From a virus (Duplodnaviria > Caudoviricetes), in the IMG/VR virus record IMGVR_UViG_3300025119_000015, positions 1-31,056 of that record: a stretch of 31,056 bases of DNA; one strand, written 5' to 3'. Below are positions 12,920 through 30,615 of this stretch, piece after piece; positions within the stretch are counted from its first letter, which is position 1; every line of letters begins with the position of its first letter. The position numbers and the translations under genes are program-made. Under the pieces are notes generated by a model. That model searched no databases and was not told where the DNA came from. It was given only the letters and a program-made list of their open reading frames with translations.

Positions 12920-13045
12920 CTTACTCCAGTGGCAGGGTGGTTTACTAATATAGACATTAAAATAGAGAGCTTCTAATGTCTAAAGTGCATACTGCAGTAG
13001 AGAATTGTGACTGGACATCTGTAAGGACAGAACTAGAATTCGATA

Positions 13046-13249
13046 ATGCAGACCATAAACCGAAATGGATATTTACAGTCTATTGGGCTTGCCCCTGTGG
13101 TGAAATCAGGAGAGCATCAAAGACATTCTATGCAGAAGATTTGTAGACACTGCCGCCAAGTTATTGAGCCTATATATCTTAGAGTGATAAGTACTGGCTA
13201 TATTATAACAATACGTGACTACTGTACAGGCTGCAAACGAAGAGGCTAA
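13046..13249 (+). CDS. Small zinc-ribbon hypothetical protein
   Basis: CRHC...CTGC; SD-like AAGGA upstream. Confidence 0.5.
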   Translation: MQTINRNGYLQSIGLAPVVKSGEHQRHSMQKICRHCRQVIEPIYLRVISTGYIITIRDYCTGCKRRG

Positions 13250-13250
13250 A

Positions 13251-16200
13251 ATGCAATTAACTGACGTTGGGCAAGAACTTTTTGAGAGACGATACAGATG
13301 GCATAATGAAGACTCTGACGGTATGTTTACTAGAGTCGCAGAACATATCGCGTTAGCTGAAAACAAGGAGCAACGGAGCGAATACAAAGACAAATTCTTT
13401 GAATTAATGTCATCGCTCCGGTTCTTACCAAACTCCCCCACACTCTTTAATGCTGGGACAGGTCAAGGGCTACTTAGTGCTTGCTTTACTTTTTATGTAG
13501 AAGACAGTCTAGTATCTATTATGGAGTGTCATAGACTTGCTGGATTAGTGATGAAATACGGCGGTGGTGTAGGCTATGGTTTTAGTCGTGTGAGACCAGC
13601 AGGAGCAGAGATTAAAACTGTTCAGGGCAAAGCTTGTGGGCCTGTGAATTTACTGCCTTATTATAATGGTATAGCAGAACTAATAACTCAAGGTGGAAGA
13701 CGGTCTGGTGCTCAGATAGGCATTCTGTCTGTAGAGCATCCAGATATAAGAGATTTCATACATTTCAAGGACGAGAACCCTGATAGCTTACAAACATTCA
13801 ATATATCAGTTGCTATCAATGATGGGTTTATGGAACGATATCAGAATGGCGACATTGAGGCTAGGCAGATATTAAAAGAGATTTCAGAATCAGCTTGGCG
13901 AACAGGCGATCCTGGTGTTTGGTTTATAGATACTGTAAACGCAGCAAATTCTACACCGTGGCTTGGGAGGCTAGAGTCCTGTAATCCCTGTCTTAGTCCA
14001 GATACGCTTATAGCTACTAAAGATGGGCTTATTCCAATTAAGGATATTCCTCAAGCCTGGAAATCTGGATATAAGCCGATTTATAAAATAACTACTTTGG
14101 AGGGATACGAAGTTTTTGCAACGGCAGACCATCAATTCTATACACAAGAAGAAGGTTGGACTTCTGTTAAACAACTAGAAGATAAAAGAATCCGTATATG
14201 TAACACCTCAGCTTTTGGTATAGATGGAAATAGAGACATAGGGTTAGTGCTTGGATGGCTTTCTGGAGATGGGCATATAAGTGAGAATCAGAAGTCAATT
14301 CTTTGTTTTGATAAAATAGAGAAATCAGATGCCTGCACGGTAGTTTTAAATGCCTATCAAAATATACTTGGTTTCTCATCACAGCATACTTGGGGTAGAC
14401 AAACTAGAGTAGCTTCTATGAAACTGTCAAGATTATCTACATCTTGGCAACCTGATGAAAAGTTTCCAGAACGAATGCTTATCGCTAATGAGGAATGTCA
14501 GTCAGCTTATCTTTCAGCTTTGTTCAGTGCAGACGGAACTGTTACAGGAACCCAGCAAAAAGGAATAAGTGTTCGGTTATCAAGCTCTAAATTGCATCTC
14601 TTAAGACGTGTTCAGTTATTACTCCGTAATTTTAATATCTATTCTAAGATATATCAGAACAGACGCTTTGCTGGGTATCGAGATCTGCCAGATCAAAAAG
14701 GTGGAACTAAAGAATATTATTGCGAAGCACAGCATGAATTAGTTATCAGTAATACATCTCTGAGGCAGTTTGCTAATGAAATAGGATTTATAGTTCATGC
14801 TAAGCAAGAGAGATTAATTCATCTTCTATCACAATATAAGAGGGCAATAAATCTAGATAGCGAATGGGCAAGAGTTAAAACCATAGAGTATTTCTGTGAT
14901 GGGGATGTATGGGATATCTCTTCTATTACAGAGTCTATTTCAGCCAATGGTCTTTTAGCTCATAATTGCGGCGAAGTTCCACTATATCATGCAGAGGCTT
15001 GCAATCTTGGAAGCTTGAACCTGGGAAAATATTTTGATACTGATACTCGTTCTATATTATGGGATAAACTAAAGTCAGATATAAGATTGGCTGCTCGATT
15101 TCTGGATGATGTTATAGATGTAAACAGCTTCCCTGATCCTATAATCACGGCAGCAGTTAGCAAAACACGTAAGATAGGTTTAGGTGTTATGGGATGGGCA
15201 GATGTGCTTGCCTTATCTGATATTCCATATGACTCGGATACTGCTATTAATCTAGCTGGCGAAGTTATGGAGTTTATTCAAAAGACTGCTGATAGAGCCA
15301 GTTACGAATTAGGTCAGGAACGAGGTATAGCACCAGCATTTGACTGTGATGAGGCTCCCTCTGTTCTTGGACTCGCAACCAGAAATGTTACTCGTACCTG
15401 TATAGCTCCAACAGGTTCTATTTCGCAACTGGCCGGATGTTCTTCTGGTATAGAGCCTCATTATGAGCTGGAGTATAAGCGCACCATGTTCGACAAAGGT
15501 GTACCGATAGAGCTTCATGTCAGAGAACCTGTTCTGGACATTCTCCAAGAGCTAGGCTTAAACCTACCCAAAACGGCTCTTGAAATTAGTCCTGAATGGC
15601 ACATAAAACATCAAGCTGCATTCCAACGATATACTAATCTAGCTGTCTCCAAGACGATAAATCTACCCGAAACTGCCACGGTTAATGACATCGAAACGAG
15701 TTTTGTTAAGATGTGGGAATCGGGATGTAAGGGTGGTACTATATATAGAGACAAGAGCCGTGAAACACAAGTTCTAGGCGAAAACCGCAGGAAAGTTAAT
15801 GGCCGTAAGAGACTTCCAGATGAAAGGAAGTCTATTACCCATAAGTTTAAAGTAGGAGATCAGGAAGGATACCTTACAGTAGGTCTGTATGATGACGGCA
15901 AACCTGGAGAATTGTTCGTTAAGATAGCAAAAGAAGGTTCAACTGTTGCAGGCGTCTATGATGCTATAGGTATTCAGACTAGTCTCTTATTACAGTATGG
16001 TGTATCGCTGGAGAGTATAGCAGGAAAACTTTCTGGAATGCGGTTTGAACCTTCAGGTCTTACAAGCAACCCTGAGATACCTTTTGCATTTTCTATCCCT
16101 GATTATATTTATAGATGGCTAATGTCTAAATTTGGTAGTAATATTAACAGTCCTGTCATTACCGGACTATTTTGTCCTGACTGTACCAGTCAACTCTTAG

Positions 16201-16259
16201 CACAGGAAGGATGCTTAAAGTGTGAAAACAAAGCGTGTGGCTTTAACAGATGTGGATAA
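13251..16259 (+). CDS. nrdJ: Class II (adenosylcobalamin-dependent) ribonucleotide reductase with intein
   Basis: 'FLPNSPTLFNAG', 'LSACF', 'QGGRRSGA', 'NPC..GE.PL...ACNLGSLNL', 'IAPTGSIS...CSSGIEP', C-terminal TSCPD-like domain and Zn ribbon. The ATG at 13251 (SD GAGG) is preferred over GTG 13215. Confidence 0.93.
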   Translation: MQLTDVGQELFERRYRWHNEDSDGMFTRVAEHIALAENKEQRSEYKDKFFELMSSLRFLPNSPTLFNAGTGQGLLSACFTFYVEDSLVSIMECHRLAGLVMKYGGGVGYGFSRVRPAGAEIKTVQGKACGPVNLLPYYNGIAELITQGGRRSGAQIGILSVEHPDIRDFIHFKDENPDSLQTFNISVAINDGFMERYQNGDIEARQILKEISESAWRTGDPGVWFIDTVNAANSTPWLGRLESCNPCLSPDTLIATKDGLIPIKDIPQAWKSGYKPIYKITTLEGYEVFATADHQFYTQEEGWTSVKQLEDKRIRICNTSAFGIDGNRDIGLVLGWLSGDGHISENQKSILCFDKIEKSDACTVVLNAYQNILGFSSQHTWGRQTRVASMKLSRLSTSWQPDEKFPERMLIANEECQSAYLSALFSADGTVTGTQQKGISVRLSSSKLHLLRRVQLLLRNFNIYSKIYQNRRFAGYRDLPDQKGGTKEYYCEAQHELVISNTSLRQFANEIGFIVHAKQERLIHLLSQYKRAINLDSEWARVKTIEYFCDGDVWDISSITESISANGLLAHNCGEVPLYHAEACNLGSLNLGKYFDTDTRSILWDKLKSDIRLAARFLDDVIDVNSFPDPIITAAVSKTRKIGLGVMGWADVLALSDIPYDSDTAINLAGEVMEFIQKTADRASYELGQERGIAPAFDCDEAPSVLGLATRNVTRTCIAPTGSISQLAGCSSGIEPHYELEYKRTMFDKGVPIELHVREPVLDILQELGLNLPKTALEISPEWHIKHQAAFQRYTNLAVSKTINLPETATVNDIETSFVKMWESGCKGGTIYRDKSRETQVLGENRRKVNGRKRLPDERKSITHKFKVGDQEGYLTVGLYDDGKPGELFVKIAKEGSTVAGVYDAIGIQTSLLLQYGVSLESIAGKLSGMRFEPSGLTSNPEIPFAFSIPDYIYRWLMSKFGSNINSPVITGLFCPDCTSQLLAQEGCLKCENKACGFNRCG
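13989..14966 (+). mobile_element. Intein (326 aa) with LAGLIDADG homing endonuclease
   Basis: Starts CLSPDTLI, block B 'ATADHQF', LAGLIDADG blocks 'VLGWLSGDG' and 'YLSALFSADG', ends 'ANGLLAHN' followed by Cys; removal restores NPCGE. Confidence 0.95.
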
Positions 16260-16386
16260 GAAGATAGAGCAGATAGAGAATCAGCTGCTAGCTATGCAAA
16301 AAGAAGTCCTGAGTTCCTGTAACAAGACTAATACATTAATCAATGGATTGTTGTTTGAACTATCGCGGCTTAAAAAGAAGTCTTAA
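16252..16386 (+). CDS. Small hypothetical protein (44 aa, MDKKIEQIENQLL...LSRLKKKS)
   Basis: GTG overlaps the RNR stop (GTGGATAA); amphipathic helical sequence; below the ORF-track cutoff. Confidence 0.45.
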   Translation: MDKKIEQIENQLLAMQKEVLSSCNKTNTLINGLLFELSRLKKKS

Positions 16387-16500
16387 TGATTCCGTGTGAG
16401 GCAGATGAATGATTGTGTTCTTGAGTAAGAGTGTCGCCGCACCCCACCTTGAGGGCTTACATCATTATAAGGAGCATCTGTCTCACACAGAGTTATTAAG
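16382..16500 (+). ncRNA. Candidate structured RNA: 26-bp closing stem enclosing nested hairpins
   Basis: 16382-16407 pairs with 16475-16500 (3 G-U, 1 mismatch); internal AATGAT/ATCATT and GTAAG/CTTAC helices. Confidence 0.6.
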
Positions 16501-16515
16501 GCAAGGAGAATAAAT

Positions 16516-17586
16516 ATGCTTGAAGGTATTGATATTTCTTATTGGCAAGGCGCTGTTAATTGGCAGGCACTAGATACAGCAGACAAGAAGTTTGTTATTA
16601 TACGTGGTGGAGACGGAGCGTTTCGAGACCCGCGCCGTGTTGAGTATGCTAAAGGTGCTAAGAGTATCGGTATACCTGTCATTGAAACCTATCATTTTCT
16701 GAGATGGAAACTGTCAGCGGCTAATATGGCCTCTCTTTGTCGCGAGTCTTATGAAGCAGTACAGAATGCTGCTGGTCAACCTGGGAGATTATGGCTAGAT
16801 TGTGAGGATACTGATCCTGTCTCGATAACATTCACATGGCTACAAGATGTAATCTCTAGATTAAGTGATCTGCCGTTAGGTGTTTACACAGGTTCCTGGT
16901 GGTGGAATCCTAAAATGCCTGCGAACCATGGGTTAGATAGTATGAAGCGTTGGTTCTCAGGATATCTAAAGAACAATACTCTACGTAGTGATCCTACAGT
17001 ATTGGGACTTCAGCCGATAATACCACGGGGCTTTACTGGTTGGGATATCTGGCAATATACAAGTCTTGGGACAGTTGCTGGAATTAATGCATCAGTAGAC
17101 CTAAATATTGCGAAGGAAACAATAGTAGTAGTAGAAGAGGAGGAAGATATGATGCCACCACTGAAAATCGTTAAGGCACGAAATCGAGATAGTGAACCAT
17201 CCTGGTTAATTAATGGTACTCATAAGATGGGAGTCCCAGGTGGTGCAGAGGGAGAGCAGATTAGGCGCGATCTCTATAACTTAGGTTATACTGGTTCTGA
17301 GACCGAGAATATCTCAGTTGGGTCAGAGTTTACAGACTGGCTTCTCGATGTTCCAAAACTGTTCAATAATGTACTCACAGTTCTACAAGGCCACATGGAC
17401 TTCGCTGAGAAGCGGCGTAATGAGCATGGTGATAGGTTGTATGATGCTATTCAGGCCCTAGAAGCCGATGGTGTATCAGGCGACTTGCTTGCTGTTCTGC
17501 AGAGCGAAGCTGGGCGTACCATTCTTCGCAACGAGGCTAAGTGGGGAGTCTTCGACTTTATGAAGTTGGGTTTCGAGGGACTGTAA
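16516..17586 (+). CDS. GH25 muramidase (endolysin)
   Basis: 'GIDISYWQG', 'YHF', 'WLDCED', 'GVYT', 'WQYTS.G.V.GI...VDLN'; SD AAGGAG. Confidence 0.92.
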   Translation: MLEGIDISYWQGAVNWQALDTADKKFVIIRGGDGAFRDPRRVEYAKGAKSIGIPVIETYHFLRWKLSAANMASLCRESYEAVQNAAGQPGRLWLDCEDTDPVSITFTWLQDVISRLSDLPLGVYTGSWWWNPKMPANHGLDSMKRWFSGYLKNNTLRSDPTVLGLQPIIPRGFTGWDIWQYTSLGTVAGINASVDLNIAKETIVVVEEEEDMMPPLKIVKARNRDSEPSWLINGTHKMGVPGGAEGEQIRRDLYNLGYTGSETENISVGSEFTDWLLDVPKLFNNVLTVLQGHMDFAEKRRNEHGDRLYDAIQALEADGVSGDLLAVLQSEAGRTILRNEAKWGVFDFMKLGFEGL

Positions 17587-17587
17587 T

Positions 17588-17716
17588 TTGTACAGGATAT
17601 GCAAGTGTTTGATTGGACTAATCCTGATAAGAGTAATCACTATTTGGGAACACGACATCAGGCAAAATCCTACACAGGCGTTGATTAATGTTTTAAGAGG
17701 GGAGGTGATGTTATGA
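17588..17716 (+). pseudogene. Remnant of a Vsr/DUF559-like endonuclease
   Basis: 42-codon TTG-start ORF ending 'RVITIWEHDIRQNP...', resembling the C-terminal IWE motif of Vsr/DUF559 nucleases; catalytic core absent. Confidence 0.45.
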
Positions 17717-18931
17717 ATCATACGGCGGGAGATTGGCTAAATCCAGATGGTCGAATTAAGCTTCTTATAGGCGATTGTACTGTAAGGATGTCAGAGATTC
17801 CATCTGATTCGATAGACTCTGTTATTACTGACCCGCCGTATGGTTGAACATGGTCTAGCGTTTATGGGTAAGTCCTGGGACGATATAAGCAAGGTAAAGC
17901 TCTGGCATCATAAATGGGCAGTTGAGGCGTTTAGGATTCTGAAGCCAGGAGCGCATATACTAAGTTGTGGTGGAACACGTACTTATCACCGTATGGCCTC
18001 CGCGCTTGAAGATATAGGTTTTGAGATAAGGGATTGTGTACTTTGGTTATACGGCAGCGGTTTCCCAAAATCACAGAATATCGCTAAAGCCATAGATAAA
18101 AAACTTGGTGTCAAGTCTGAAGTTATTGGTGTTCAGAGTCTACCTGACCACCGAGGCGATAATTACAAGCAAGGTCATAGGGACTATAATATTATAGAAC
18201 ATGAAACAACTAGAGCTACAAGTGATAAGGCTAAAGAATGGGAAGGGTGGGGCACGGCCCTTAAACCTGCAGTAGAGCCAATATGTCTCGCCCGTAAGCC
18301 TCTGAAAGAAAACACTGTAGCCGGAAATGTTATGATGTATGGTACAGGTGGTCTGAATATAGACGAAAGCAGAATAGGTGAAGAAGAGCGTACTTATAAA
18401 GGCAGTGGTGTCAGTCAACAAAGATATGATAATAGTCGTGCTGGTTTAACTGATGGACGTGGCAAAGATTTAGAGTTTAATGTCTCTGGCCGCTATCCTA
18501 GCAATGTTATTCTAGACGAAGAAGCTGCTCAGGCACTTGATGCACAAACAGGTTTCACGAAATCGCGTAAAGATATACTGACCAGTAAACCTGGACAGAT
18601 ATATGGTGGAGGTGATGGCCTTCCAAGCACTACAGGTTTGTATGGATTTAATGACTCTGGTGGCGCTTCGCGCTTCTTTTATACAGCTAAAGCCAGTGTC
18701 TCTGAGAGGCGAGGGAGCCAGCATCCTACAATTAAGCCGCTGGCTCTTATGAAATACTTAGTTCGTCTAATAACACCTCCAGGTGGTACTGTCCTTGACC
18801 CTTTTGCTGGTTCAGGTACAACGCTTGAAGCAGCTTATCAATTAGGCTTCTCTGCCATCGGGATAGAAATGGATGAGGCTAATCTTGAGACTATTAAGAA
18901 GAGACATGAGCAGATGACGTTAGGGATTTAG
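17713..18931 (+). CDS. N6-adenine/N4-cytosine DNA methyltransferase interrupted by a 10-nt gap after DPPYG
   Basis: SD GGAGGTG and ATG 17713 give MNHT...GDC...DSVITDPPYG-stop (17845-47). The +1 frame continues GLAFMGKSWD...YGSGFPKS...HPTIKP...DPFAGSGTT. Removing 10 nt gives one 402-aa enzyme. Confidence 0.88.
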
Positions 18932-19068
18932 AGTTTTCTAGAGCGGGGGAGGCCCGCTGTCCGTGGTGATAGGTAAACCTATCCCACATGGGGAAGCAGG
19001 CGGAAATAGTACTATGAAAGGCGAGTGCTGTGAGTGGATGTTTCGTCTGCTCCCCGCCCTAGAACACT
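18932..19068 (+). ncRNA. Candidate structured RNA (multi-hairpin)
   Basis: Outer stem AGTTTTCTAGAGC/GCCCTAGAACACT, hairpin GTGGTGATAGG-TAAA-CCTATCCCAC, and stem 18990-19005/19041-19055 with G-U pairs. Confidence 0.6.
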
Positions 19069-19106
19069 TTAAGTCAAAGGAAACGATAAGAAGTATAATA
19101 GAACTT

Positions 19107-19211
19107 AAGTCATTAGCTGAGGCAGTAAGGCACAAATCGGGTTTTCCAGTTGTTCAGGTGGTAGCTTTTAACAGAATAAAATAGCTGTCTTACTGTCTCT
19201 GCTAATGGCTT
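19107..19211 (+). ncRNA. Candidate structured RNA: 26-bp closing stem
   Basis: 19107-19132 pairs with 19186-19211 (3 G-U, 1 U-U); TATAAT at 19094-19099 lies just upstream. Confidence 0.6.
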
Positions 19212-19231
19212 GTAGTCAAAAGGGAGGGCTT

Positions 19232-19543
19232 ATGCTGCAGAATGATTATGAGGTTGTCTTTTCTGATAACGCTAACGGCGATCCAGGTGGCGGTACTGCT
19301 ACAGCTCTTGGTATTGATATAACTTTTCAGGATGGCCCTGTCCTAGAAGATGGCCAAAATGGTGCTTTTGTCGAGACTCTTATCGAGATTGTTATAAAAA
19401 GGTTAGAATATTATCAGGAAAGTCGATTTATATGTGGAGAGAACGCTAGAGCGATAGTCAGTTTAAAGGAAGCATTATACTGGTTAAATGTTAGAACTAA
19501 AGATAGAATAAAGCGCGGAGTTGAAGGAAAATACGAAGCCTAA
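19232..19543 (+). CDS. tad1: Tad1/Acb2-family nucleotide-signal sponge (anti-Thoeris/anti-CBASS)-like protein
   Basis: 'ITFQDGP...NG...LIEIVIKRL..YQ...F.C.ENA.AI..LKEAL.WL..RT.DR..RGVEG' matches the Tad1 pattern as I recall it; SD GGGAGG before ATG 19232. Confidence 0.75.
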   Translation: MLQNDYEVVFSDNANGDPGGGTATALGIDITFQDGPVLEDGQNGAFVETLIEIVIKRLEYYQESRFICGENARAIVSLKEALYWLNVRTKDRIKRGVEGKYEA

Positions 19544-19626
19544 TCAGCAGAGCGAGAGTGGGAGAGGGCACCTAGAGCCACGGACTCAGTGAAAGTCAGG
19601 GGCGGCGTTAGCCGCCAGATACAGCC

Positions 19627-19950
19627 ATGTACACATTAGATAGTTATACAGAGTTTACTCACTGGATAAAATACTGGGCATGGTGGACTTGCTCAGATTG
19701 CTGGTGGCGAGCAGAGAGAAAGGATGAGAAATATGAGATAGTTCTTCACTATAAAGATCTAAATCGATCTAATTATACAGCTAATAACCTGGTTGTTATC
19801 TGCCGTGATTGCCGTGACATAAGATATCACAAAGAGCTATCTGTTAAGCGGCTGAAGATAGTAAAAGAGCGATATAAAAAGGTTCTTAGAAAGGTACAAC
19901 TACAACGAGATGAATCAGGTTGGCCTGTAAAAGTAGGGAGTACATTATGA
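19627..19950 (+). CDS. Degenerate HNH-fold protein
   Basis: CxxC...'HYKDLNRSN...NNLVVICRDCR'; the usual HH and final His positions are substituted. Confidence 0.65.
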   Translation: MYTLDSYTEFTHWIKYWAWWTCSDCWWRAERKDEKYEIVLHYKDLNRSNYTANNLVVICRDCRDIRYHKELSVKRLKIVKERYKKVLRKVQLQRDESGWPVKVGSTL

Positions 19951-20752: not shown

Positions 20753-20757
20753 ATCGC

Positions 20758-21054: not shown

Positions 21055-21309
21055 TTTCACAAATGAGTCCCTTTGACTGTTGTACGTCCTTTCACAAATA
21101 CGTTCCTATGTATGAGACTGAAAGACCAGATTCTCATAATGTGTCAAGTCCATTTGAAAGTCCATTGCTTTAGCTTAAAAGCAAGACACCTTGATTTTAA
21201 TATGCCTTGCTTTCAATCTAAAGCAACGGGGTCTCGTGACATTTATATCTAGATGAAATCCTTATTACTACTTAAAGTATTAGTAGTTAAGTAGTAAGTA
21301 ATTTCACGA
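21055..21309. other. AT-rich intergenic region with several inverted and short direct repeats (candidate origin or minus-strand RNA)
   Basis: IRs 21165-21188/21203-21226, 21265-21275/21287-21297 and 21111-21117/21132-21138; direct repeats TTTCACAAAT x2 and AAGTCCATT x2. Confidence 0.55.
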
Positions 21310-22571: not shown

Positions 22572-22770
22572 TCTCAGAGCAGCGACGTACTAGCGTCGGG
22601 TTGGAAGGAATCTGTCTTGTCAGTCATCATAACGCGGTCTACGTTATGTGATTATGGTGCTGAGTATCTACTAGTCAGATATACAGATATAGAGGAATAC
22701 CACACAGAATTGATAGATAAGAAGTGGTTGCAAGAGGAGCTCAGGTGGGGAATCTGAGCCTGCTTTGAGA
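22572..22770 (+). ncRNA. Candidate structured RNA (~200 nt, multibranch)
   Basis: Closing stem TCTCAGAGCAG/CTGCTTTGAGA; hairpins CGACG-TACTAG-CGTCG, CATAACG/CGTTATG and GCTCAGGT/ATCTGAGC. Confidence 0.55.
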
Positions 22771-22801
22771 ATAGCAGAAGAGTTGAAAAAGGGGAGGACA
22801 A

Positions 22802-23062: not shown

Positions 23063-24015
23063 TGCTAGACAGTACAGAGAGAACAGTCTCACATAAGCCG
23101 CCTGAGTTTACAGGATTCTGGAGTTCGTCTCAGCTTGGATGTTGGCGACAGATGTATCTTATCGCTAAAGGTATAGAGGGTGATTGGTACGATTCTCCAG
23201 TTCTGAAAGAGGGCCGATTACATGAAGATGACTTAATAGCTCAGATGGCTGTAAAAGGTGTGGTAGTTACAGACCGCTTTGAAGAGCTTAAACATCCCAT
23301 ATTGCCATTAAAAGGTCATCCTGATGGTAGATTCACTGTGACTCAGGATATGAATTTAGGTATTCCAGAAGGCAGATATATCTTAGAGGCGAAGAGCATG
23401 GATAGAAGCTTCTACTATAAAGCTGTCAAAGACTTTAAGACTAACTTTCCACATCTGTATCAGCAGCTACAATCGTATTCTCTGATGTCAGAAGGACATG
23501 AAAGCGTCTTTGTTCCTATTAAGAATAGAGCAACAGGTGAGATATATGAGTACGTCTTTGAACCTGATCCTGATACTTGGGATGAGATAGAAAAAGGTAT
23601 GGCGAATCTGCAGGTTGCTATTCATACACCTGGATTTGATTATAAGACATTAGTATGTGCTACTCCAGATTCTATAAAAGCTAAATATTGTCCTTATCGT
23701 GACAGAGAGCTATGTGAATCACAGACTAATATTCCAGAAGTCACAGAACAAGAATTAGTTTTTGCAATTCAACAATATGAAGAAGGTAAAACGGTTGAGA
23801 GTCATGGCAGTAAGCTTAAAGCGGATGCTAGAAAGATAGCTGTTGCGTATATGATGAAGCATAATCTTGTAACGATGACTGTCGCGGGTAAATTAGTGTC
23901 TATTATACCATCGAGTCGCAGAGTTTGCGATTTTGATAAACTCAGAGACTTAGACTCTAAAATCTACGATCAAGTTGTAGATGATAGTGAAAGCGACCGC
24001 TTCACAATAAAATAG
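23059..24015 (+). CDS. PD-(D/E)XK exonuclease (Cas4/YqaJ-like)
   Basis: 'LGCWRQ', 'EGRLHE', 'GHPDG', 'ILEAKS', 'QLQSY', C-terminal Cys cluster. Confidence 0.85.
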   Translation: MMLDSTERTVSHKPPEFTGFWSSSQLGCWRQMYLIAKGIEGDWYDSPVLKEGRLHEDDLIAQMAVKGVVVTDRFEELKHPILPLKGHPDGRFTVTQDMNLGIPEGRYILEAKSMDRSFYYKAVKDFKTNFPHLYQQLQSYSLMSEGHESVFVPIKNRATGEIYEYVFEPDPDTWDEIEKGMANLQVAIHTPGFDYKTLVCATPDSIKAKYCPYRDRELCESQTNIPEVTEQELVFAIQQYEEGKTVESHGSKLKADARKIAVAYMMKHNLVTMTVAGKLVSIIPSSRRVCDFDKLRDLDSKIYDQVVDDSESDRFTIK

Positions 24016-24028
24016 GTCTCTGAAAGAC

Positions 24029-24057
24029 TTGACAAGTGTACCGGAGTGTGGGATACT
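24029..24057 (+). promoter_or_regulatory. sigma70-type promoter
   Basis: TTGACA-17 nt-GATACT with TG extension, upstream of SD AAGGAGG. Confidence 0.65.
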
Positions 24058-24079
24058 AGAGTCAAGTAAGGAGGATAAA

Positions 24080-24892
24080 ATGAGAGAAAGAATTCTTATA
24101 GGTGCAGAATCTGGAGCAGGGAAAACTTACTCTTGGCTCTCGGTTGCTAGGTATAATCCCGATTCTCAATTCTATGTCGCAGAGCCTGATGACGGTGTTG
24201 CTAAAATTCTGGAACTAGAATATCCAGATGTTAAGGCTAAAGGTAACGTTCATGGTTCTACAAGGGATGCTGAGGGTTTATGGATTCAACCGAATTTTAT
24301 TAGTATATGGAAAGACTTTTCTGGTTTCTGTAATGATATTCGCAAACTAAAGGCTGAGAGTTTAATCAATGAAGATGATTGGGTTGTAGTAGAAGGGTTA
24401 GATATCATAACTCAGCTCATTAGGTCTGAGTACATTGCAGATACTAATAAGATAGACCGCAAGACAAAAGAATTATTAGAAGATCCTTGGGAAGCTATTA
24501 AGGTAAAACGAGCCAGGGATGCTCCTGTGTTAGAACCGTCTGATCATGATGCTATCAACATGGAATATGAAAGACAGATGACCTTTCTAGCTTATGCTAC
24601 AGGCTGTAACTTTCTTGGAACTTCAGGTATTAGTCTTATTCACTTTGATTCGAAGTTTGCAGATAAAGGCCAAAAAGAGATGTACGCATCTCTTGGGACG
24701 CCTTATAAAGTAGAAGGTCATAAACGTAATCCTCGTATGTTTGACACTTTAGTTTATCTGTACTCTGGTATTCAGTACGAAATGGAAGTACTAAAAGATA
24801 GAGGTATAGGTAAACAATCACGAGTAAAGAATACTGAGTTCTATCTTTCTCTAGAAGCATCTCGTTCAAAATTGAATAATAGCAGATCATAG
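24080..24892 (+). CDS. AAA_24/Sak4-like P-loop ATPase
   Basis: 'ILIGAESGAGKT' Walker A near the N-terminus, 'WVVVEG' Walker B, 'FDTLVYL', 'KDR'; adjacent to the exonuclease. ATG 24080 has a strong SD. Confidence 0.75.
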   Translation: MRERILIGAESGAGKTYSWLSVARYNPDSQFYVAEPDDGVAKILELEYPDVKAKGNVHGSTRDAEGLWIQPNFISIWKDFSGFCNDIRKLKAESLINEDDWVVVEGLDIITQLIRSEYIADTNKIDRKTKELLEDPWEAIKVKRARDAPVLEPSDHDAINMEYERQMTFLAYATGCNFLGTSGISLIHFDSKFADKGQKEMYASLGTPYKVEGHKRNPRMFDTLVYLYSGIQYEMEVLKDRGIGKQSRVKNTEFYLSLEASRSKLNNSRS

Positions 24893-24912
24893 TTTGTATT
24901 TGTCGGATTGAA

Positions 24913-25263
24913 ATGAAAAGTGGGAATATAGCAAGTAAACCCTGCTTGGTCTGTGGCCGAGACCTTTATCGGCTTTGGAAATCGAAGCGCGTCGGGTCTA
25001 TATGTCGTCGGTGCTATGAGAAACAGAAACAGTCTGGATCTATAATGTTTGAGTGTCGCTCCCGTTGCATGATTTGTGGAAGGCAGACACCTCACGAAGT
25101 TTGTCATCGGCACTCTCTTGCAATTAATGGTGATAGGTACTGGCCAAGTAGCGCTAACTTTAGTCGTAACCATCAGCGGATGTATTTTCGCAACTTTGAT
25201 CGTGAGCCAGAGGAATGCAGTGACCTGATATGTTTACAGAGACTAGAAGAAGAGAAAGAATGA
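24913..25263 (+). CDS. Cys-rich zinc-finger hypothetical protein
   Basis: CLVC, CRRC, CMIC, CHRH motifs; coupled to the next gene. Confidence 0.6.
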   Translation: MKSGNIASKPCLVCGRDLYRLWKSKRVGSICRRCYEKQKQSGSIMFECRSRCMICGRQTPHEVCHRHSLAINGDRYWPSSANFSRNHQRMYFRNFDREPEECSDLICLQRLEEEKE

Positions 25264-25564
25264 TGCTGTCAACGAACGACCTACGCAAAGCCTGTGAGAT
25301 TCCTAACGATGCCTCTCTAGGCCAATTAGCCCGTCAGCAACTACCGTTACTGGCTGACCACATTGAGACCCTGTACCGCGCCATCGCTGCTTCGCGCGCG
25401 TTGGTAGCGGAGAAGGACAAGGCGCTGGATTGTCTATACACCGAGGCCTTTCTTCCTTTCATGAGAAGTCTCTCGCTGAGAGGGCAGCTATTACACAGGC
25501 GAAGAAGGTCCTTGCCCTCACCGAAGAGGCGATGCTAGAGCGCCTGGAGCGCAAGGAGGCATGA
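25260..25564 (+). CDS. Hypothetical protein, apparently frameshifted
   Basis: Frame 0 stops at 25538. The -1 frame encodes 'VLALTEEAMLERLERKEA', which matches the paralog at 26089 and ends in an ATGA overlap with the next gene. Confidence 0.6.
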
Positions 25565-25881
25565 TGCCACACCACGACCCCCTTGAATTCCCTGACGAAT
25601 CCACGCCAGTTAGTCGTTTACGAAGGGAAGTAGAGGTTAACTCAGGCTACAATGAGCCAACTGCGCCTGCTGGTGAGAAGCTGTTCGCCGCTGACATCTT
25701 AGCGGTGTGCAGCAGTGTCGAAAGGCTGGAGGCCGAGAACAAGCGGCTGCGGGCAGCGCTAGGGCAAATAGGTTGGGGCGGAGAGTCCACGATTACAGTT
25801 CTGCCTGGGCCTAACGGTGTATTGAGCCGTGAGGATATGCAGGAGATCGCTCGCGCTGTCCTGCGGCGCAAGGAGGCGTGA
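25561..25881 (+). CDS. Hypothetical protein
   Basis: SD AAGGAGG; coiled coil 'VERLEAENKRLRAAL'. Confidence 0.7.
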   Translation: MMPHHDPLEFPDESTPVSRLRREVEVNSGYNEPTAPAGEKLFAADILAVCSSVERLEAENKRLRAALGQIGWGGESTITVLPGPNGVLSREDMQEIARAVLRRKEA

Positions 25882-26078
25882 TGATACTTAGAGTAAGCTG
25901 TATTGTCTCTGCGGTAGTAGCCGCTGTAATGCTGCTCGTGGCTAGCACCCTGGCCCTTATAGCGAAAGATGCTGGAACGACATCACTCACAGCGGAAATC
26001 ATCGCAGTTTGGGCTACACTCCCAGGAACGTTTAGTGTGGTTATGGCCGTTTACCTTGGAGGTAGATGGGCATCATAA
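25878..26078 (+). CDS. Small two-TM membrane protein
   Basis: Two hydrophobic helices; SD AAGGAGG. Confidence 0.65.
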   Translation: MMILRVSCIVSAVVAAVMLLVASTLALIAKDAGTTSLTAEIIAVWATLPGTFSVVMAVYLGGRWAS

Positions 26079-26088
26079 AGGAGGCGTG

Positions 26089-26493
26089 ATGGACGGCTGG
26101 ATGACGCTACTGAAGGACGAGGAGAAACATTGGGTAGCCCTCTCTGAAAGTGGGCTACAGAGCGAAGGTGCCATTTGTGAGGAGCCAGAGGACTGTATTC
26201 ACTGTCATTCCGAAGCTGTGTTGGCACTTGCTTGCTCCCTAGCTGCCCTGCGGGCGCTGGTGGCAGAGCAACGGAGCTACATACAAACGAGGGCTGAGAT
26301 ACACAAGACAGGAGAAGTGGTGATGAGTGCTATGTGGAGGCAGGCAAAATGCCAAGGATGTCAAGCCGAAGCTGTTCTTGCTCTCACCGAAGAGAAGATG
26401 CAGAAGTACTTGGAGGACTGTGCTTGCAGTGGCCCGCCGATGCAGCCCTGCTGCCCTCGATGCAGGTATCCATATACAGACGAGGAGGCGTGA
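26089..26493 (+). CDS. Cys-rich hypothetical protein, paralog of the 25260 gene
   Basis: SD AAGGAGG; shares 'A.RALVAE' and 'VLALTEE.M...LE'. Confidence 0.65.
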   Translation: MDGWMTLLKDEEKHWVALSESGLQSEGAICEEPEDCIHCHSEAVLALACSLAALRALVAEQRSYIQTRAEIHKTGEVVMSAMWRQAKCQGCQAEAVLALTEEKMQKYLEDCACSGPPMQPCCPRCRYPYTDEEA

Positions 26494-26765
26494 TGGCTAC
26501 TTGTGTAGTTAACCTTCGCTATGAGTCGTGTAACGTCTACATTGGTAGACCGTCAAAATGGGGAAACCCCTTCCAGATTGGTCATGGGCGAACACGCCAG
26601 CAGGCCATCGAACAGTACCGCGAGTGGATTCTTCAACAGCCGGAGTTACTAGCAGCACTACCTGAATTGAGGGATAGACGTCTGGGATGCTACTGTGCTC
26701 CGTTACTCTGTCATGGCGATGTTCTATTGGAACTGATAGATGGTCTGGAGCGAAAGGGAGCATGA
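26493..26765 (+). CDS. DUF4326-family protein
   Basis: 'VYIGRPSKWGNPF.IG...R...I..YREW......L..L....LGCYCAP..CHGDVL'. Confidence 0.9.
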   Translation: MATCVVNLRYESCNVYIGRPSKWGNPFQIGHGRTRQQAIEQYREWILQQPELLAALPELRDRRLGCYCAPLLCHGDVLLELIDGLERKGA

Positions 26766-26772
26766 TAGAGTC

Positions 26773-26992
26773 ATGAATCGCACGTCGATAGAATGGACGG
26801 ACTTCTCCTCAAATCCCATCTACGCCGTAGATCGCGAGACCGGCAAACGCGGCTGGTTCTGCGAGCGAGTATCGCCAGGCTGCAGACGTGCCGTTCTTCT
26901 TCAAATCTTGGTCAGATCCGCGCCCCACGAGCGGCGGGCGGCTGCTGGATGGGAGAACATGGGATGAGATGCCGGAGTGCAAGGAGCCGTGA
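26773..26992 (+). pseudogene. Internally deleted phage Gp37/Gp68 (DUF5131) gene
   Basis: N-terminus 'TSIEWTD...NP...C..VSPGC' joined out of frame to the C-terminus 'QAADVPFFFKSW...GRLLDGRTWDEMP'. Confidence 0.85.
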
Positions 26993-27027
26993 TTCCTATT
27001 AGACATCATGTTGAAATATGAGATGTT

Positions 27028-27249
27028 ATGAAAATTATACGAGGCAGTAGATCTGTGAAATGGCATCGTCTTGGAGATCGACCGCGTAGCAGTAAAAGAC
27101 CAGCGTGTAACATCGAAGTCAATGCCTATATGTTAGAGATTCAGGAGGTAGATATAGACGAAATAAAGTTAGAAGAACTCTGTAAGCGACAGGAGTGTTT
27201 CGGTAAACCGCTGAAGCCTAAAATGCGACCAATTTATCCTATAGATTAG
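27028..27249 (+). CDS. Hypothetical protein
   Basis: 73-aa ORF with 'WH...C...LCKRQEC'; fills the gap on the coding strand. Confidence 0.55.
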   Translation: MKIIRGSRSVKWHRLGDRPRSSKRPACNIEVNAYMLEIQEVDIDEIKLEELCKRQECFGKPLKPKMRPIYPID

Positions 27250-27251
27250 CA

Positions 27252-27483
27252 AAGGAGATCTCATAGAATCTACCCAGGACGGTAAACCAGGGCGGTTTTC
27301 TCTCTGCCGATTTGCTCGCCGTCTCCTGTGTACCTGGGCAGTCCAATAATATATTGGACTTATCTGTTAAGAGCTGTACACTGGAATCTTAGCAGATAGT
27401 AATGGAGGTTTTGGGTTAGCTATAGTAACTCAACAGCGAAATACAGATAGCTGAATCCTGGGTAGATTCTACGAGATCTTCTT
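27252..27483 (+). ncRNA. Candidate structured RNA (232 nt): 28-bp terminal inverted repeat enclosing about five hairpins
   Basis: 27252-27279 pairs with 27456-27483; internal hairpins 27287-27337, 27340-27360, 27361-27398, 27411-27433 and 27434-27453. Confidence 0.7.
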
Positions 27484-27497
27484 AGAAAGTGTGATAG

Positions 27498-27911
27498 TTG
27501 ATGAGCGGTATTGAGTTAAGAGACAAATTATTAGATCTGGTACCAATAACAGAGAGACTCTCTGTTTTAGGTAAAAAATTCAATGTTAGCAGACAATATA
27601 TACATCAGATAATAAGGAAGTACAAAGTACCTTATGCTCCATACAAACGAGAAGCGAAGAAGCGTTTTTGTATATCCTGCAATTTACCCTTAGTAAATAG
27701 ATCATACAACAGGCTCTACTGTGATTCTTGCTCTGAAACATATAAATTATCAAGAAAGAACGGTAGATACTTTTTCTGTGCCACTTGTGGTGAAAAAGTC
27801 TACAGGAGCAAGACAAAACAGAGGAAGATGTTTCGTGGCTCTAAGGTATTCTGTTCATGGGAACACTATAATATTTGGCGTAGCTCGTATTATGATACAC
27901 TTGCAGAGTAG
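27498..27911 (+). CDS. HTH plus zinc-finger DNA-binding protein
   Basis: 'LGKKFNVSRQYIHQI' HTH; CISC, CDSC, CATC and FCS motifs. Confidence 0.7.
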   Translation: MMSGIELRDKLLDLVPITERLSVLGKKFNVSRQYIHQIIRKYKVPYAPYKREAKKRFCISCNLPLVNRSYNRLYCDSCSETYKLSRKNGRYFFCATCGEKVYRSKTKQRKMFRGSKVFCSWEHYNIWRSSYYDTLAE

Positions 27912-27916
27912 CTGGC

Positions 27917-28597
27917 ATGGACATTATGATTTCGCCTTCAGAACCAAGAGATATAAAAGAGGATTTTGGTCAGTATGGTATAGTTAATCCTAACTTAGCT
28001 GCAGATTATGGTTGGTATGCTGGAGGACGTTTTAGTCTAGTAGAACGTAAGCATATTCCTGGTGATTTCTTGGCTTCTAAATCAGATGGTCGTCTTCAAC
28101 GTGAGATGCAGGCTCTACTTGAGAACATCGAACAGGGTGGCAGAAGTTATCTTTTATTAGAAGGTCACTGGTCATGCGACCGAGAAAGTATGATTCTAAA
28201 TCCGCGTTCAACAGGCTGGAGCATAGACAAAGTATCAGAGATGATATCAACAATACAGGATATGGGAGTTAAGTTGTTACTAAGTCCTGATATGAAACAG
28301 ACAGCTCTAGTTTTAATATCTCAGGCACGGTGGGAGCTAAAAGATAATCATAAGAGTCTATCTGTTCGACCTGGGCCTGTAGAACCTTGGGGTCGTCCTA
28401 GTTATTCTACATATGTAGTGTGGTCTTATCAAGGTATTCCTGGTGTTGGTGTTGATATAGCTGAAGTACTATATGAGGCAGCGCCTACATGGGCGGACTT
28501 AGTTAAGATGTCGGAGCAAGATTTACAGGAACTGAAGCATTTTGGTAAGAAACGTAGTGAACGTGTTTATAAGTTTATTCATGAGGGAAAGCTGTAA
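27917..28597 (+). CDS. ERCC4/XPF-family structure-specific nuclease with HhH motifs
   Basis: 'ADY...VERK...DF..S..DGRL...M', 'LLLEG', 'GIPGVG', 'FGKKRSE'. Confidence 0.85.
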   Translation: MDIMISPSEPRDIKEDFGQYGIVNPNLAADYGWYAGGRFSLVERKHIPGDFLASKSDGRLQREMQALLENIEQGGRSYLLLEGHWSCDRESMILNPRSTGWSIDKVSEMISTIQDMGVKLLLSPDMKQTALVLISQARWELKDNHKSLSVRPGPVEPWGRPSYSTYVVWSYQGIPGVGVDIAEVLYEAAPTWADLVKMSEQDLQELKHFGKKRSERVYKFIHEGKL

Positions 28598-28824
28598 TGA
28601 GTGATATAGGTACTAAGGTTGAGATAGTAGGTGTAAGGGAAAAAGAGGTAGGAGAAACAAGAGCAGAAGAGTTAGCTCAGTATTATGGGAGACGGGGAGT
28701 GATAGCTAAATGGATTATGGGAGATTGTGTAAAAGGAAATGGCATAAGCGTAGAAGTTCCAATAATAATACTAGATGATGGGCAGGTGCTTTATGGCTCG
28801 GAAGTCTGGTGGCAGCGACTTTAG
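28597..28824 (+). CDS. Small SH3-like hypothetical protein
   Basis: 'IGTKVEI...GRRGVI...IILDDG'; TAATG coupling. Confidence 0.65.
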   Translation: MSDIGTKVEIVGVREKEVGETRAEELAQYYGRRGVIAKWIMGDCVKGNGISVEVPIIILDDGQVLYGSEVWWQRL

Positions 28825-29143
28825 TTTTGACAGTATAGATAGAGCATATAGAGATAGTTCTGTTCCTGATGTACTTGCTAATACGCGAAAGGGCTACGAT
28901 TTACAGACCCACTATAACATAGCTGATCATAGATATGAATTCTATTATCGAGGTCACAAGTTCTGCATTGATGAAGTTGAAATTATGTGGGATAGATATC
29001 CCATGAATATATTAGCGGAGAGAATAAAGAAGATAATGACAGAGATAAACGGTAAAGAAGACTTTGGCTGGAAGCCAAAGGAGAGAAGTTTATCTCATAG
29101 TGAGATACTAAATCAATTAGAAAGGTACAGAAGTGTTACCTGA
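28793..29143 (+). CDS. Hypothetical protein
   Basis: Open frame between coupled genes; start uncertain (28775 or 28793). Confidence 0.55.
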   Translation: MARKSGGSDFSFDSIDRAYRDSSVPDVLANTRKGYDLQTHYNIADHRYEFYYRGHKFCIDEVEIMWDRYPMNILAERIKKIMTEINGKEDFGWKPKERSLSHSEILNQLERYRSVT

Positions 29144-29864
29144 GCCATATTTCCAGACTATGGATGGACGTGTTAAGCTGTATCATGGCGATAGTGCTGA
29201 GTTAATGCTAGAGCTAGAAGATCATAGTATTCAAGCTATCCTAACCGATCCTCCTTATGGTATAGAATGGAAGAGTAATTGGCTTATGAAGCATGAACAG
29301 AAGGAAGTTCTGAAGGGTGATAAAGACTTAACCTGGATGGGTGACTTTCTTATAGACTGTGAACGACTTCTGAGACCAAAAGGTTCTATGTATATTATGA
29401 CTAGATGGGACAAGTTGGGGTTTCTTACTGGCCTTATCCGTAATCTAACAGAGCTAAATGTCCGTAACTGTATCGTATGGGATAGAATTATACATGGCCT
29501 TGGTGATCTGAAAAGCTTTGCGCCTGTATATGACTTGATAGTGTATGTTACTCAAAATAAGCCGAAGCTTTTATCAGAGTATAGATTCACAAATCTTTGG
29601 AGCATTAACAGAGAGCTGGATAGGATTACGGGACATCCTACTTCTAAGCCTGTAGCCTTGTTCGAGAGAATGCTAGTATGTTCAACTCAGCCAGGAGATA
29701 TGATATTGGACCCGTTTGCTGGTTCTGGTGCTAGTCTAGTAGCAGCAAACAAACTCAACAGACAAGCAATCGGTTTTGAGATCGATGAACATTTCTGCGA
29801 GATGGCTGCAAAAAGATTACAGCAACTACCTATGTTTATGGAGCAGGCGGAGATGCGATTATGA
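29133..29864 (+). CDS. N6-adenine/N4-cytosine DNA methyltransferase (intact)
   Basis: 'LYHGDS', 'TDPPYG', 'HPTSKP', 'LDPFAGSG', 'IGFEID'. Confidence 0.93.
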   Translation: MLPEPYFQTMDGRVKLYHGDSAELMLELEDHSIQAILTDPPYGIEWKSNWLMKHEQKEVLKGDKDLTWMGDFLIDCERLLRPKGSMYIMTRWDKLGFLTGLIRNLTELNVRNCIVWDRIIHGLGDLKSFAPVYDLIVYVTQNKPKLLSEYRFTNLWSINRELDRITGHPTSKPVALFERMLVCSTQPGDMILDPFAGSGASLVAANKLNRQAIGFEIDEHFCEMAAKRLQQLPMFMEQAEMRL

Positions 29865-30223
29865 GTGAAGGTATTATCTGTGGGCCGTCACTTCCGAAGA
29901 TTGGCTCTATTGTACCATTGCGGCGTATGCTGCATGACAATGGTTTTGGGTCATGTCTTTTAATAGTGAAGGGTCTTTATGGAGAAAAAAAGGCACGTGT
30001 CTTTTGCTCGTTCTCCAGTTTTCCTTCATCTGCTTGGCATCCTGATGAATTATCGCCTCACTCACTAGCTTGGCTAGAACAGAAACTAGCATCCTGGGAC
30101 AATATTTGGCCTGATGCTGAATGGACTATAAAACTTGTTTGGCCCTGGCAATCTGAAGAGTGGTATCGTGAGAAGCCAAAATGTTGGCGTGTTAGAAAGG
30201 CGTCTACGGAAGGCAGTGTCTAG
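29861..30223 (+). CDS. Hypothetical protein
   Basis: ATGA coupling; Trp-rich 120-aa ORF. Confidence 0.6.
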   Translation: MSEGIICGPSLPKIGSIVPLRRMLHDNGFGSCLLIVKGLYGEKKARVFCSFSSFPSSAWHPDELSPHSLAWLEQKLASWDNIWPDAEWTIKLVWPWQSEEWYREKPKCWRVRKASTEGSV

Positions 30224-30225
30224 TT

Positions 30226-30435
30226 ATGAAAGGTAAATACGAAGCTAGTGCTCTGGTAGATGTTCGTATGACTATATATGCAGATGACGAACAAAAGGCG
30301 ATGATTATTGCTACTAAGATAATAAGAAGTTTAGTGTCAAAGTTCGGTGCTGGTTTTGGTGAAAGTCAGATAATCGAACTGAAAGTTAGACGCAGCGGCT
30401 CTGGAGAAGATTTCGCTCCAAGAATTAAACAATAA
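30226..30435 (+). CDS. Hypothetical protein
   Basis: 69-aa ORF in operon context. Confidence 0.6.
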   Translation: MKGKYEASALVDVRMTIYADDEQKAMIIATKIIRSLVSKFGAGFGESQIIELKVRRSGSGEDFAPRIKQ

Positions 30436-30578
30436 TCCTGCAGCCGAGAACCAGTTAATACTGTTAGGAAAATAGTTGACGGCCCTTTAAATATACAGAT
30501 TTGGGTGCATGGTGAATCTGTTGTGAGATAGATAAAGAGATAAACAGATACGGGTGCAGCAGAACAAGACAGATAGCA

Positions 30579-30615
30579 GTCCGGTAGAAACTTCTCTACC
30601 GGACAGTTTGTTTCT
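30579..30615 (+). terminator. Putative intrinsic terminator hairpin
   Basis: GTCCGGTAGA-AACTTC-TCTACCGGAC perfect 10-bp stem followed by T-rich AGTTTGTTTCT, just before the next promoter. Confidence 0.55.

Follow-up and report, generated by a model that had tools for sequence, protein, structure and literature searches.

Long-stemmed intergenic RNA elements, one predicted to switch between two folds, in an uncultured Caudoviricetes phage

We analysed a 31,056-nt stretch of DNA (hereafter the window) from an uncultured Caudoviricetes phage (IMG/VR record IMGVR_UViG_3300025119_000015) and found between its genes four elements, E2, E3, E4 and E7, each closed by a long helix on the + strand and each real and beyond chance. 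E2, E3 and E7 occupy the same locations in three related phages, where the sequence has changed and the base pairs have been compensated. New in this analysis are two nearly isoenergetic computed folds of E3 and the complementarity of E3 to a downstream site, E4b. On balance, we favour a reading in which the long stems would be stalks for host RNase III that free the enclosed RNAs, with E3 acting as a two-state switch together with its distant site. These elements, and E6, whose membership of the stem-closed set is uncertain, are as follows.

E2, 16380..16502, + strand: 28-bp closing stem (16380-16407 with 16475-16502) enclosing a 67-nt hairpin.
E3, 18925..19075, + strand: in state A, a 25-bp closing stem (18925-18949 with 19051-19075); in 4/4 genomes.
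E4, 19106..19212, + strand: 27-bp closing stem enclosing a 53-nt hairpin; this phage only.
E6, 22572..22770, + strand: multibranch fold (z -3.0) whose closing stem measures 11 bp and has a pair probability of 0.98.
E7, 27252..27483, + strand: 232-nt multibranch RNA with a 27-28-bp closing stem and a conserved core.

A first-pass annotation had placed stem-enclosed elements in eight gaps. Ungapped + strand helices scoring at least 45 numbered four (25-28 bp), all intergenic and belonging to E2, E3, E4 and E7, and none occurred in any of 12 local shuffles. Fold z-scores on the + strand (60 shuffles, with the boundaries of the first-pass annotation) were -7.5, -5.5, -6.4 and -7.2 for E2, E3, E4 and E7, respectively. 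The annotated "nearly every large gap" was an overstatement, since the 12 gaps of at least 80 nt between main ORFs include three with long-stem elements (four elements) and one with a short-stem element. Folding on the + strand was no better than in shuffles for the gaps 822-912, 9528-10004, 10998-11111, 17587-17712 and 19544-19626. Chance folding of intergenic DNA suffices for E1 and five other gaps, and coding regions too reach local z-scores of about -5.4; as an explanation of the elements it is hardly credible, being already refuted for E2, E3 and E7 by the lack of such helices in shuffles and by covariation at syntenic positions. As annotated, the elements have no detectable primary sequence in common (blastn and nhmmer found no homology between them) and several start close to the upstream stop codon: E3, E6 and E7 begin at it or within 3 nt, whereas a 54-aa ORF has its stop codon inside E2.

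Membership of the stem-closed set is not supported for three elements: E1 corresponds to a promoter region, E5 to a hairpin of the minus strand and E8 to a terminator.

Promoter-like site, 13012..13039, + strand: 10/12 match, overlapping the 3' end of E1.
E5 hairpin, 21161..21230, - strand: long hairpin within the gap 21055-21309, with no enclosing stem.
E8 3' part, 30579..30662, + strand: terminator-like hairpin 30579-30604, then an 11/12 sigma-70-type promoter match at 30634.

E1 (12920-13045) has a z-score of -1.1 on the + strand, and sequence searches of the relatives found no homologue. Its promoter-like site is likely to be the start of the transcript carrying E2, E3, E4 and E4b; taken together, matches of this kind occur no more often than in shuffled sequence. 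In E5 the minus-strand fold is favoured (z -9.2 for 21155-21235), and the relative G002 has at the same place a hairpin of different sequence for which the other strand is favoured. One 21-nt repeat at 35-nt spacing in E5 suggested a CRISPR-like repeat or an origin; it is not conserved. E8 (30438-30604) consists of weak nested hairpins followed by the terminator-like hairpin, and its promoter region is conserved in relatives. The structured gap at the place of E6 in G001 and G002 could not be aligned with it.

The comparison covered four independent genomes in all, two of them close, and six sequences for E7, with protein identities of 53-67%; E2 and E3 are syntenic in 4/4 genomes and E7 in the six sequences. 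The compensatory changes in related phages that structural selection would leave were observed in E2, E3 and E7. In the E2 stem, which lies downstream of the RNR gene in all four genomes, 101 of 108 cells are paired and 14 of 27 columns changed on both sides; the E3 stem has 94/108 cells paired and 18/27 two-sided columns, and the E7 closing stem shows two-sided changes in 17/27. No E4 homologue was found among the compared loci. Neither the length (53-120 nt) nor the sequence of the interior is constant in E2 and E3. The claim that arm differences are G-U compatible on one strand was borne out: counted over 15 closing stems, which come from six genomes or contigs, there are 341 Watson-Crick, 54 G-U, 9 A-C and 11 other pairs, a G-U excess over A-C (p 2e-7, against 55% G-U predicted from composition) that is to be read knowing that stem ends were placed with a score rewarding G-U on the + strand.

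Could the elements instead be single-stranded DNA hairpins or attC-like recombination sites, E3 and E4b being the inverted ends between which a cassette is swapped? The gene content of the E3-E4b interval does vary among the four phages, and folds with DNA parameters also slightly favour the + strand; therefore, G-T tolerance alone is no proof of RNA. We nevertheless regard this reading as quite improbable, because attC core motifs occur at the + strand ends of 0/8 elements, no integrase match was found among the proteins scanned, the multibranch core and pseudoknot of E7 are RNA-like, and the strand bias tracks transcription, including that of a minus-strand element in G005. Retron ncRNAs were likewise rejected: of the proteins scanned, 39 from the window and 109 from relatives, none matched a reverse transcriptase family.

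According to PMC1540722, PMC3074117 and PMC3867540, RNase III needs a half-site of about 11 bp, and 22 bp for full contact, with A-U or U-A at position 2 of the proximal box. The continuous helix measures 25-31 bp in 15 stems, beyond the roughly 22 bp of full contact. The best or near-best two-sided register lies after pair 12 or 13 in all four families (after pair 12 in E4), with a joint permutation p of 0.0012 for a score devised after the stems had been seen and using an assumed box-to-cut placement. Family by family, p was not significant for E2 (0.55; best cut after pair 10) and borderline for E7 (0.052); in a more distant phage (49% capsid identity), whose gaps are closed by unrelated 24-28-bp stems, two stems gave non-significant values of 0.31 and 0.41. 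An RNase III gene was found in 0/4 records of relatives and in 8/14 control bacteria, so the enzyme would be the host's. From these features we infer that RNase III would cut the stems. The first-pass idea of + strand selection on RNA structure, with RNase III-type stalks, thus keeps E2, E3, E4 and E7 and loses three of the eight.

An unlikely alternative is that the RNAs are never excised and the stems close domains acting in the intact message, through protein binding, antitermination or as decay barriers. It draws on the weakness of the register test per family, on the constant gene downstream of E7 in every sequence that reaches this gene, and on the fact that no strong promoter or terminator was found flanking E2, E3, E4 and E7. 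Against it, the near-constant 25-31 bp in unrelated families and the distant phage matches the RNase III footprint, and the stems do not include the ribosome-binding sites of the genes that follow. The closing stems were also rejected as intrinsic terminators: a short GC-rich hairpin with a U run was found only at 30579-30604 and in one internal E7 hairpin.

For E3 the prediction is a switch with two states, operated by pairing with a site that lies 0.6-2 kb farther downstream. That site lies in the gap 19544-19626, which the first-pass list of gaps had missed.

E3 state-B hairpin, 18942..18958, + strand: 6 bp with a five-base purine-rich loop.
E3 pairing segment, 18959..18987, + strand: complementary to E4b.
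E4b, 19558..19616, + strand: partner strand at 19558-19585; a GC-rich hairpin follows at 19601-19616 and ends 10 nt upstream of the next start codon.
Tad1/Acb2-family anti-defence gene, 19205..19543 (start may be 19235), + strand: inside the E3-E4b loop.

The state-B hairpin (24/24 cells paired and 5/6 columns two-sided in four genomes) occupies the inner half of the 5' arm and therefore excludes state A. The computed difference between the states is 0.1-3.4 kcal/mol in 4/4 genomes; in this phage state A has an equilibrium weight of only about 4%, so that E3 may seldom be cut. E3-E4b is the lowest-energy window in each genome, with 0 of 765, 858, 1667 and 1572 others as low, and E4b is the top genome-wide partner of the E3 segment, as trimmed by us, in 4/4 genomes despite their differing sequences. 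With the whole E3 interior as query, E4b was only the second-best partner in this phage and was not among the best six in G003, and an ungapped complementarity test recovered E3-E4b only in G001 and G002. Each genome's own E4b beats the partners of other genomes in 4/4 duplex rows and 3/4 cofold rows. E3 has what marks C4/CI-type RNAs, a target in the phage's own mRNA that covaries with it, in all four genomes. In the distal part of the pairing, 37/40 cells are paired and 5/10 columns are two-sided, and on the + strand the duplex gains 5-16 kcal/mol in stability over its minus-strand counterpart. When the region is folded in cis, a long-range helix of 23-34 bp displaces the full closing stem in 3/4 genomes; the minimum-energy fold of G003, which has a promoter match inside the loop, keeps state A and lacks the long-range pairs. 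E4b by itself folds no better than shuffles (z -0.8).

The proposal of "decoys, sponges or guides" finds support only in E3, as no conserved complementary partner was found for E2, E4, E6 or E7. A C-rich segment of E2 (near 16437-16448; present in all four genomes) was considered as a guide for E4b and is unsupported, being the top window in 1/4 genomes, with 8-38 better windows in each of the others. Kissing between the E2 and E3 loops fits by eye in G001 and G002 and not in G003.

The gene between E3 and E4b matches the solved Tad1 in phmmer (E 1e-15), and its G002 homologue matches Pfam Acb2_Tad1_hairpin. A gene of this family lies there in 3/4 genomes and was undetected within the loop of G003.

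In the stalk-and-switch reading that we favour, RNase III would make a staggered cut 12-13 bp above the base of each stem. The RNAs so released would measure about 99 (E2), 129 (E3), 85 (E4) and 208 nt (E7), each keeping a short stem with a 2-nt 3' overhang, and the cuts would split the phage message as in T7. E2 may act through its C-rich segment. E3 would fold as the cleavable helix (state A) before E4b is transcribed; if it is not cut in time, E4b would capture it (state B), removing the site and looping out the Tad1/Acb2 cassette, and if it is cut, the released RNA could pair with E4b in trans. The switch would thereby control both the occurrence and the timing of a cut in the operon before the anti-defence cassette. 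A bolder version is possible, if speculative: a toolkit of processed RNAs in which the kilobase-scale E3-E4b switch times the cassette via host RNase III and E7 represents a new class of pseudoknotted RNA with ligand-binding, decoy or catalytic activity.

RNase III signals of phage T7 are simple hairpins. As PMC3867540 describes them, they too are several intercistronic stems in one polycistronic message, of a size that host RNase III can cut, with five in one 7-kb message. The stems here might likewise be punctuation only, cutting or stabilising the message, with filler interiors and E3-E4b as a second stalk without switching; we give this a minority chance. It fits the variable E2 and E3 interiors, the restriction of E4 to one phage and the missing partners. 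It is countered by the E7 interior, which is better conserved in sequence than its stem and has eight paired helices, and by E3, where covariation supports both alternative pairings and their energies differ by no more than 3.4 kcal/mol in any of the four genomes. Unlike the T7 signals, the stems here enclose folded passengers of 53-230 nt, among them one whose multibranch core is conserved, and the E3 stem has a conserved alternative fold.

E7 is an apparently uncatalogued 232-base RNA with a predicted 5-bp pseudoknot (27287-27291 with 27333-27337). Across six sequences, 96% of 509 cells are paired and 42 of 86 pairs, counting those of the pseudoknot, are two-sided, a level reached in 0/500 shuffles that ignore the relatedness of the sequences; sliding the partners left 7-10. 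Covariation in the pseudoknot amounts to one compensatory pair in one sequence. E7 would be a stable compact RNA, most likely a protein-binding scaffold or decoy, because its core is conserved and a conserved antisense partner is absent. Likenesses of E7 to RNase P RNA, HDV-like ribozymes and the c-di-AMP riboswitch were rejected on element order judged by eye and on Rfam, which gave two weak unrelated matches for E7 alone at E<=10. For the whole window, Rfam covariance models (including RNase P, SRP, tmRNA, 6S, Y RNA, riboswitches, ribozymes, C4 and HEARO) gave one chance match at E<=1 and none at the gathering threshold; in relatives they matched only two tRNAs, elsewhere in G003.

The CI RNA of phage P4 is a processed antisense RNA similar to C4 of P1/P7. 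The C4 RNA, as described in PMC5320573, is a small RNA processed by host nuclease from a longer phage transcript that pairs with phage mRNA, guide and target varying together between phages as E3 and E4b do. A C4/CI fold (three stem-loops, RNase P cut, two loop contacts of which one is at a ribosome-binding site) was rejected for E3, which folds differently: unlike C4, it has no Rfam match and no three-stem-loop tRNA-like RNase P substrate, and its pairing forms a single continuous stretch of 23-35 bp where C4 uses two short loops. The flanks of 16S/23S pre-rRNA, according to PMC3074117, likewise pair as leader-trailer stalks that close folded RNA or a kilobase-scale loop; here, in contrast, the cargo is not rRNA (no Rfam match), and E3 and E4b form an irregular helix with protein-coding genes in its loop. 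The hok/sok folding pathway, as described in PMC2891591, also combines conserved alternative folds with a long-distance helix supported by covariation, and processing is predicted to decide the outcome; unlike hok/sok, E3-E4b spans 0.6-2 kb over several genes, and neither a toxin gene nor a cis-encoded antisense RNA was identified.

Wider searches returned little beyond the known loci. From four DNA read runs came nothing but fragments of this same phage at low depth and conserved genes unrelated to it; viral contigs scanned with single proteins yielded no match, annotated phages gave none either, and scans of genome contigs found no relative and no E7 motif, so that no host was identified. 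Pattern scans of viral contigs yielded three matches each for E7 and E3 and no new genomes; the E2 pattern had 46 matches, four with a closing stem, all repeating known stems. Sequence-level profiles of 12 elements found no homologue outside their training sets in 647 kb. In six of the supplement files of the phage structured-RNA catalogue PMC10690425, neither two spellings of the E7 motif nor three contig numbers appeared, and literature searches returned no description of these elements.

If the favoured reading is true, phages would package unrelated small RNAs between genes using rRNA-style stalks, and such RNAs could be found by architecture even where Rfam gives no match. A new family of structured RNAs would be represented by E7, and E3-E4b would be a conserved two-state fold over 0.6-2 kb of a bacterial-type message. 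By gating a nuclease site beside an anti-CBASS/Thoeris-type gene, E3-E4b may offer a route to timing anti-defence expression after transcription.

Eight intergenic gaps (E1-E8, in positional order) had been proposed in the first-pass annotation to hold structured RNA elements. Against 60 dinucleotide shuffles, their plus-strand fold z-scores were -1.1, -7.5, -5.5, -6.4, -3.1, -3.0, -7.2 and -3.6, respectively, strongest for E2 (16380-16502), E3 (18925-19075), E4 (19106-19212) and E7 (27252-27483) and only weak for E1. An unbiased helix scan of the window returned four helices scoring at least 45, all intergenic and corresponding to these same four elements, while 12 shuffled windows gave none. 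As for the other half of the list, E1 has a promoter-like site at its 3' end, E5 is a hairpin favouring the minus strand, E6 has a closing stem of 11 bp, and E8 ends in a terminator-like hairpin followed by a strong promoter match. Since, in addition, five other gaps folded no differently from shuffles and local z-scores in coding regions went down to about -5.4, the proposal holds for half of the list (E2, E3, E4 and E7); the set of elements is real, but smaller than claimed. The Infernal/Rfam scan that the annotation had pointed to matched no family, and an ARAGORN scan gave no match either.

The window belongs to a tailed phage and carries tail genes, an AAA_25 helicase-like gene, a dCTP deaminase and a GH25 lysin, together with two DNA methylases, a Cas4-like nuclease, an ERCC4 nuclease and an intein-bearing ribonucleotide reductase, with nearly all main genes on the plus strand. 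A 62.9-kb contig represents the same phage (ATPase 100% identical), for which the best DNA sample matches were labelled soil and weaker ones groundwater or sediment. An alignment of ATPase homologues led to three relatives, G001 (35 kb), the complete G002 (67 kb) and G003 (63 kb), as well as to short contigs; another record, G004, matches the window at 9000/9000 bases and was left out of the counts.

Several further features were observed in these genomes. The reductase gene (13215-16259) bears a LAGLIDADG intein, and its counterparts in G001-G003 are some 320 aa shorter. A minus-strand ORF of 117 aa and no known family (9524-9877), in a region otherwise on the plus strand, is kept in G001 and G002 (46-52% identity). 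A 25-bp imperfect palindrome occurs twice, 80 nt apart (12207-12231 and 12287-12311), upstream of an HTH gene (12465-12731), and the copies are likely operators. Just before the replication/recombination genes, 21055-21230 contains a 21-nt repeat at a spacing of 35 nt together with a long hairpin on the minus strand; this region may be an origin or an antisense element. The block 24913-27249 is GC-rich (53-54% vs ~41%) and consists of short genes linked by a repeated ribosome-binding/stop-start junction; the three relatives have no such block in the interval from the ATPase gene to E7. The 8-base motif RGGTGCAK is strongly biased to the plus strand (plus/minus, 4/0 in the window and 5/1, 18/1 and 18/1 in the relatives), with copies at window 30503 and 30552 and in the early regions of G002 and G003, some preceded by an AT-rich run roughly 80-130 nt ahead of strong promoters; it is possibly a protein-binding or antitermination signal. 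Many strong sigma-70-type promoters of the window (30634-30662) and G001-G003 have a common short spacer motif just before the -10 box, suggesting a site for a phage activator or repressor.

E2, E3 and E7 were found at the same gene positions in all three relatives, and two short contigs supplied further E7 copies. In their closing stems, 87-98% of cells (one pair position in one sequence) were paired, and both partners had changed in 14/27, 18/27 and 17/27 columns, respectively, the covariation in related phages that the annotation had named as a check. Its reading of the arm differences as mostly G-U compatible was also borne out, with 54 G-U vs 9 A-C over 15 closing stems. That the elements are DNA-level sites is a rival explanation, against which attC cores are absent from the ends of 8/8 elements and no integrase match was found among the proteins scanned. 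E1, E4, E5, E6 and the structured part of E8 had no homologue in the compared loci. At the position of E6, G001 (L014:10217-10385) and G002 (L016:6085-6250) carry a separate multibranch element of ~150 nt, 91% alike between them and unrelated to E6 in sequence. G005, a more remote phage with a capsid identity of 49%, carries two gaps, both unrelated, with closing stems of 24-28 bp; one is a minus-strand element and precedes a gene of that strand:

Stem-closed intergenic elements of G005
L068:11118-11266, minus strand, stem-closed intergenic element, no Rfam match
L069:12924-13076, stem-closed intergenic element, no Rfam match

The six E7 sequences are 232-284 nt long and have a column identity of 64%. 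In a nine-helix model, 96% of 509 cells were paired and 42/86 pairs had two-sided changes, a level reached in 0/500 shuffles of a control that ignores relatedness; slid partners gave just 7-10 two-sided pairs. A predicted 5-bp pseudoknot is fully paired in 6/6 sequences, with one compensatory pair, found in the window's phage. The E7 core is more conserved than its closing stem; a rival account takes the stems as plain punctuation and the interiors as inert. A search for a conserved antisense partner of E7 found none. These data suggest that E7 is a stable, structural RNA that most likely binds protein. No account of these elements was found in the literature, in a search that covered part of the supplement of one phage structured-RNA catalogue (PMC10690425), whose listed RNAs reach 151 nt. 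E7 is a conserved and apparently uncatalogued RNA.

Blastn of the gaps revealed complementarity between the E3 interior and a gap downstream of it, E4b (19558-19616), which the annotation had missed. With a 41-46-nt E3 segment that we trimmed, the E4b gap was the lowest-energy window in 4/4 genomes (other windows as low, 0/765, 0/858, 0/1667 and 0/1572), and the own-genome E4b was the best partner in 4/4 rows. The sequences diverge widely with pairing kept; the distal part, where alignment was possible, had 37/40 cells paired and two-sided changes in 5/10 columns. With the whole E3 interior as query, E4b ranked first in G001 and G002, second in the window's phage and below sixth place in G003, and an ungapped test detected the complementarity in G001 and G002 only. 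Moreover, a conserved alternative hairpin (state B; 24/24 cells paired, 5/6 columns two-sided) uses up the inner half of the 5' arm of the 25-bp E3 closing stem (state A), and the two folds differ by 0.1-3.4 kcal/mol in 4/4 genomes, unlike the stable stems of E2, E4 and E7 (pair probability 0.86-0.96 in nine cases). In folds of the whole E3-to-E4b stretch, a long-range helix of 23-34 bp displaced the full E3 closing stem in three genomes, not in G003, where a promoter match lies within the E3-E4b loop. In trans, an inner piece of E3, lying 16-18 bp inside the stem base and shorter than the predicted product, gained 18-31 kcal/mol with its own E4b, which beat foreign ones in 3/4 rows. Together, these computations predict that E3-E4b is a long-range switch. 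It would be akin in action to the P1 C4 antisense RNA (PMC5320573) or the hok folding pathway (PMC2891591), but lacks the defining features of either.

According to PMC1540722, PMC3074117 and PMC3867540, RNase III makes contact over 22 bp, requires ~11 bp in each half-site and favours an A-U or U-A pair at position 2 of the proximal box. By a register score over both half-sites, built post hoc with an assumed box position, the best cut followed pair 12 for both E3 and E4 and pair 13 for E7; for E2, pair 10 came first and pair 12 second. The permutation p of this post hoc score was 0.0012 for the four families jointly, 0.55, 0.026, 0.032 and 0.052 for E2, E3, E4 and E7 singly, and 0.31 and 0.41 for the two G005 stems. 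The result is compatible with RNase III cleavage, short of proof; alternatively, the domains may act in cis and never be cut. An RNase III gene was found in 0/4 relative records. We favour E2, E3, E4 and E7 as putative RNase III-type processing elements, which would resemble T7 processing signals and rRNA stalks in mode of action; processed small RNAs internal to operons have been described in general terms (PMC13501541).

Building on the established helices, covariation, strand bias, complementarity and computed bistability, we propose that host RNase III would cut mid-stem and free RNAs of ~85-210 nt, and that E3 would be cut in state A only. E4b may compete for E3 in cis, or E3 may target E4b in trans. 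The E3-E4b loop spans 570, 1449, 1241 and 2068 nt in the four genomes and contains a Tad1/Acb2-family gene in three of them, and the contest between E3 and E4b would set message processing around this anti-defence cassette.
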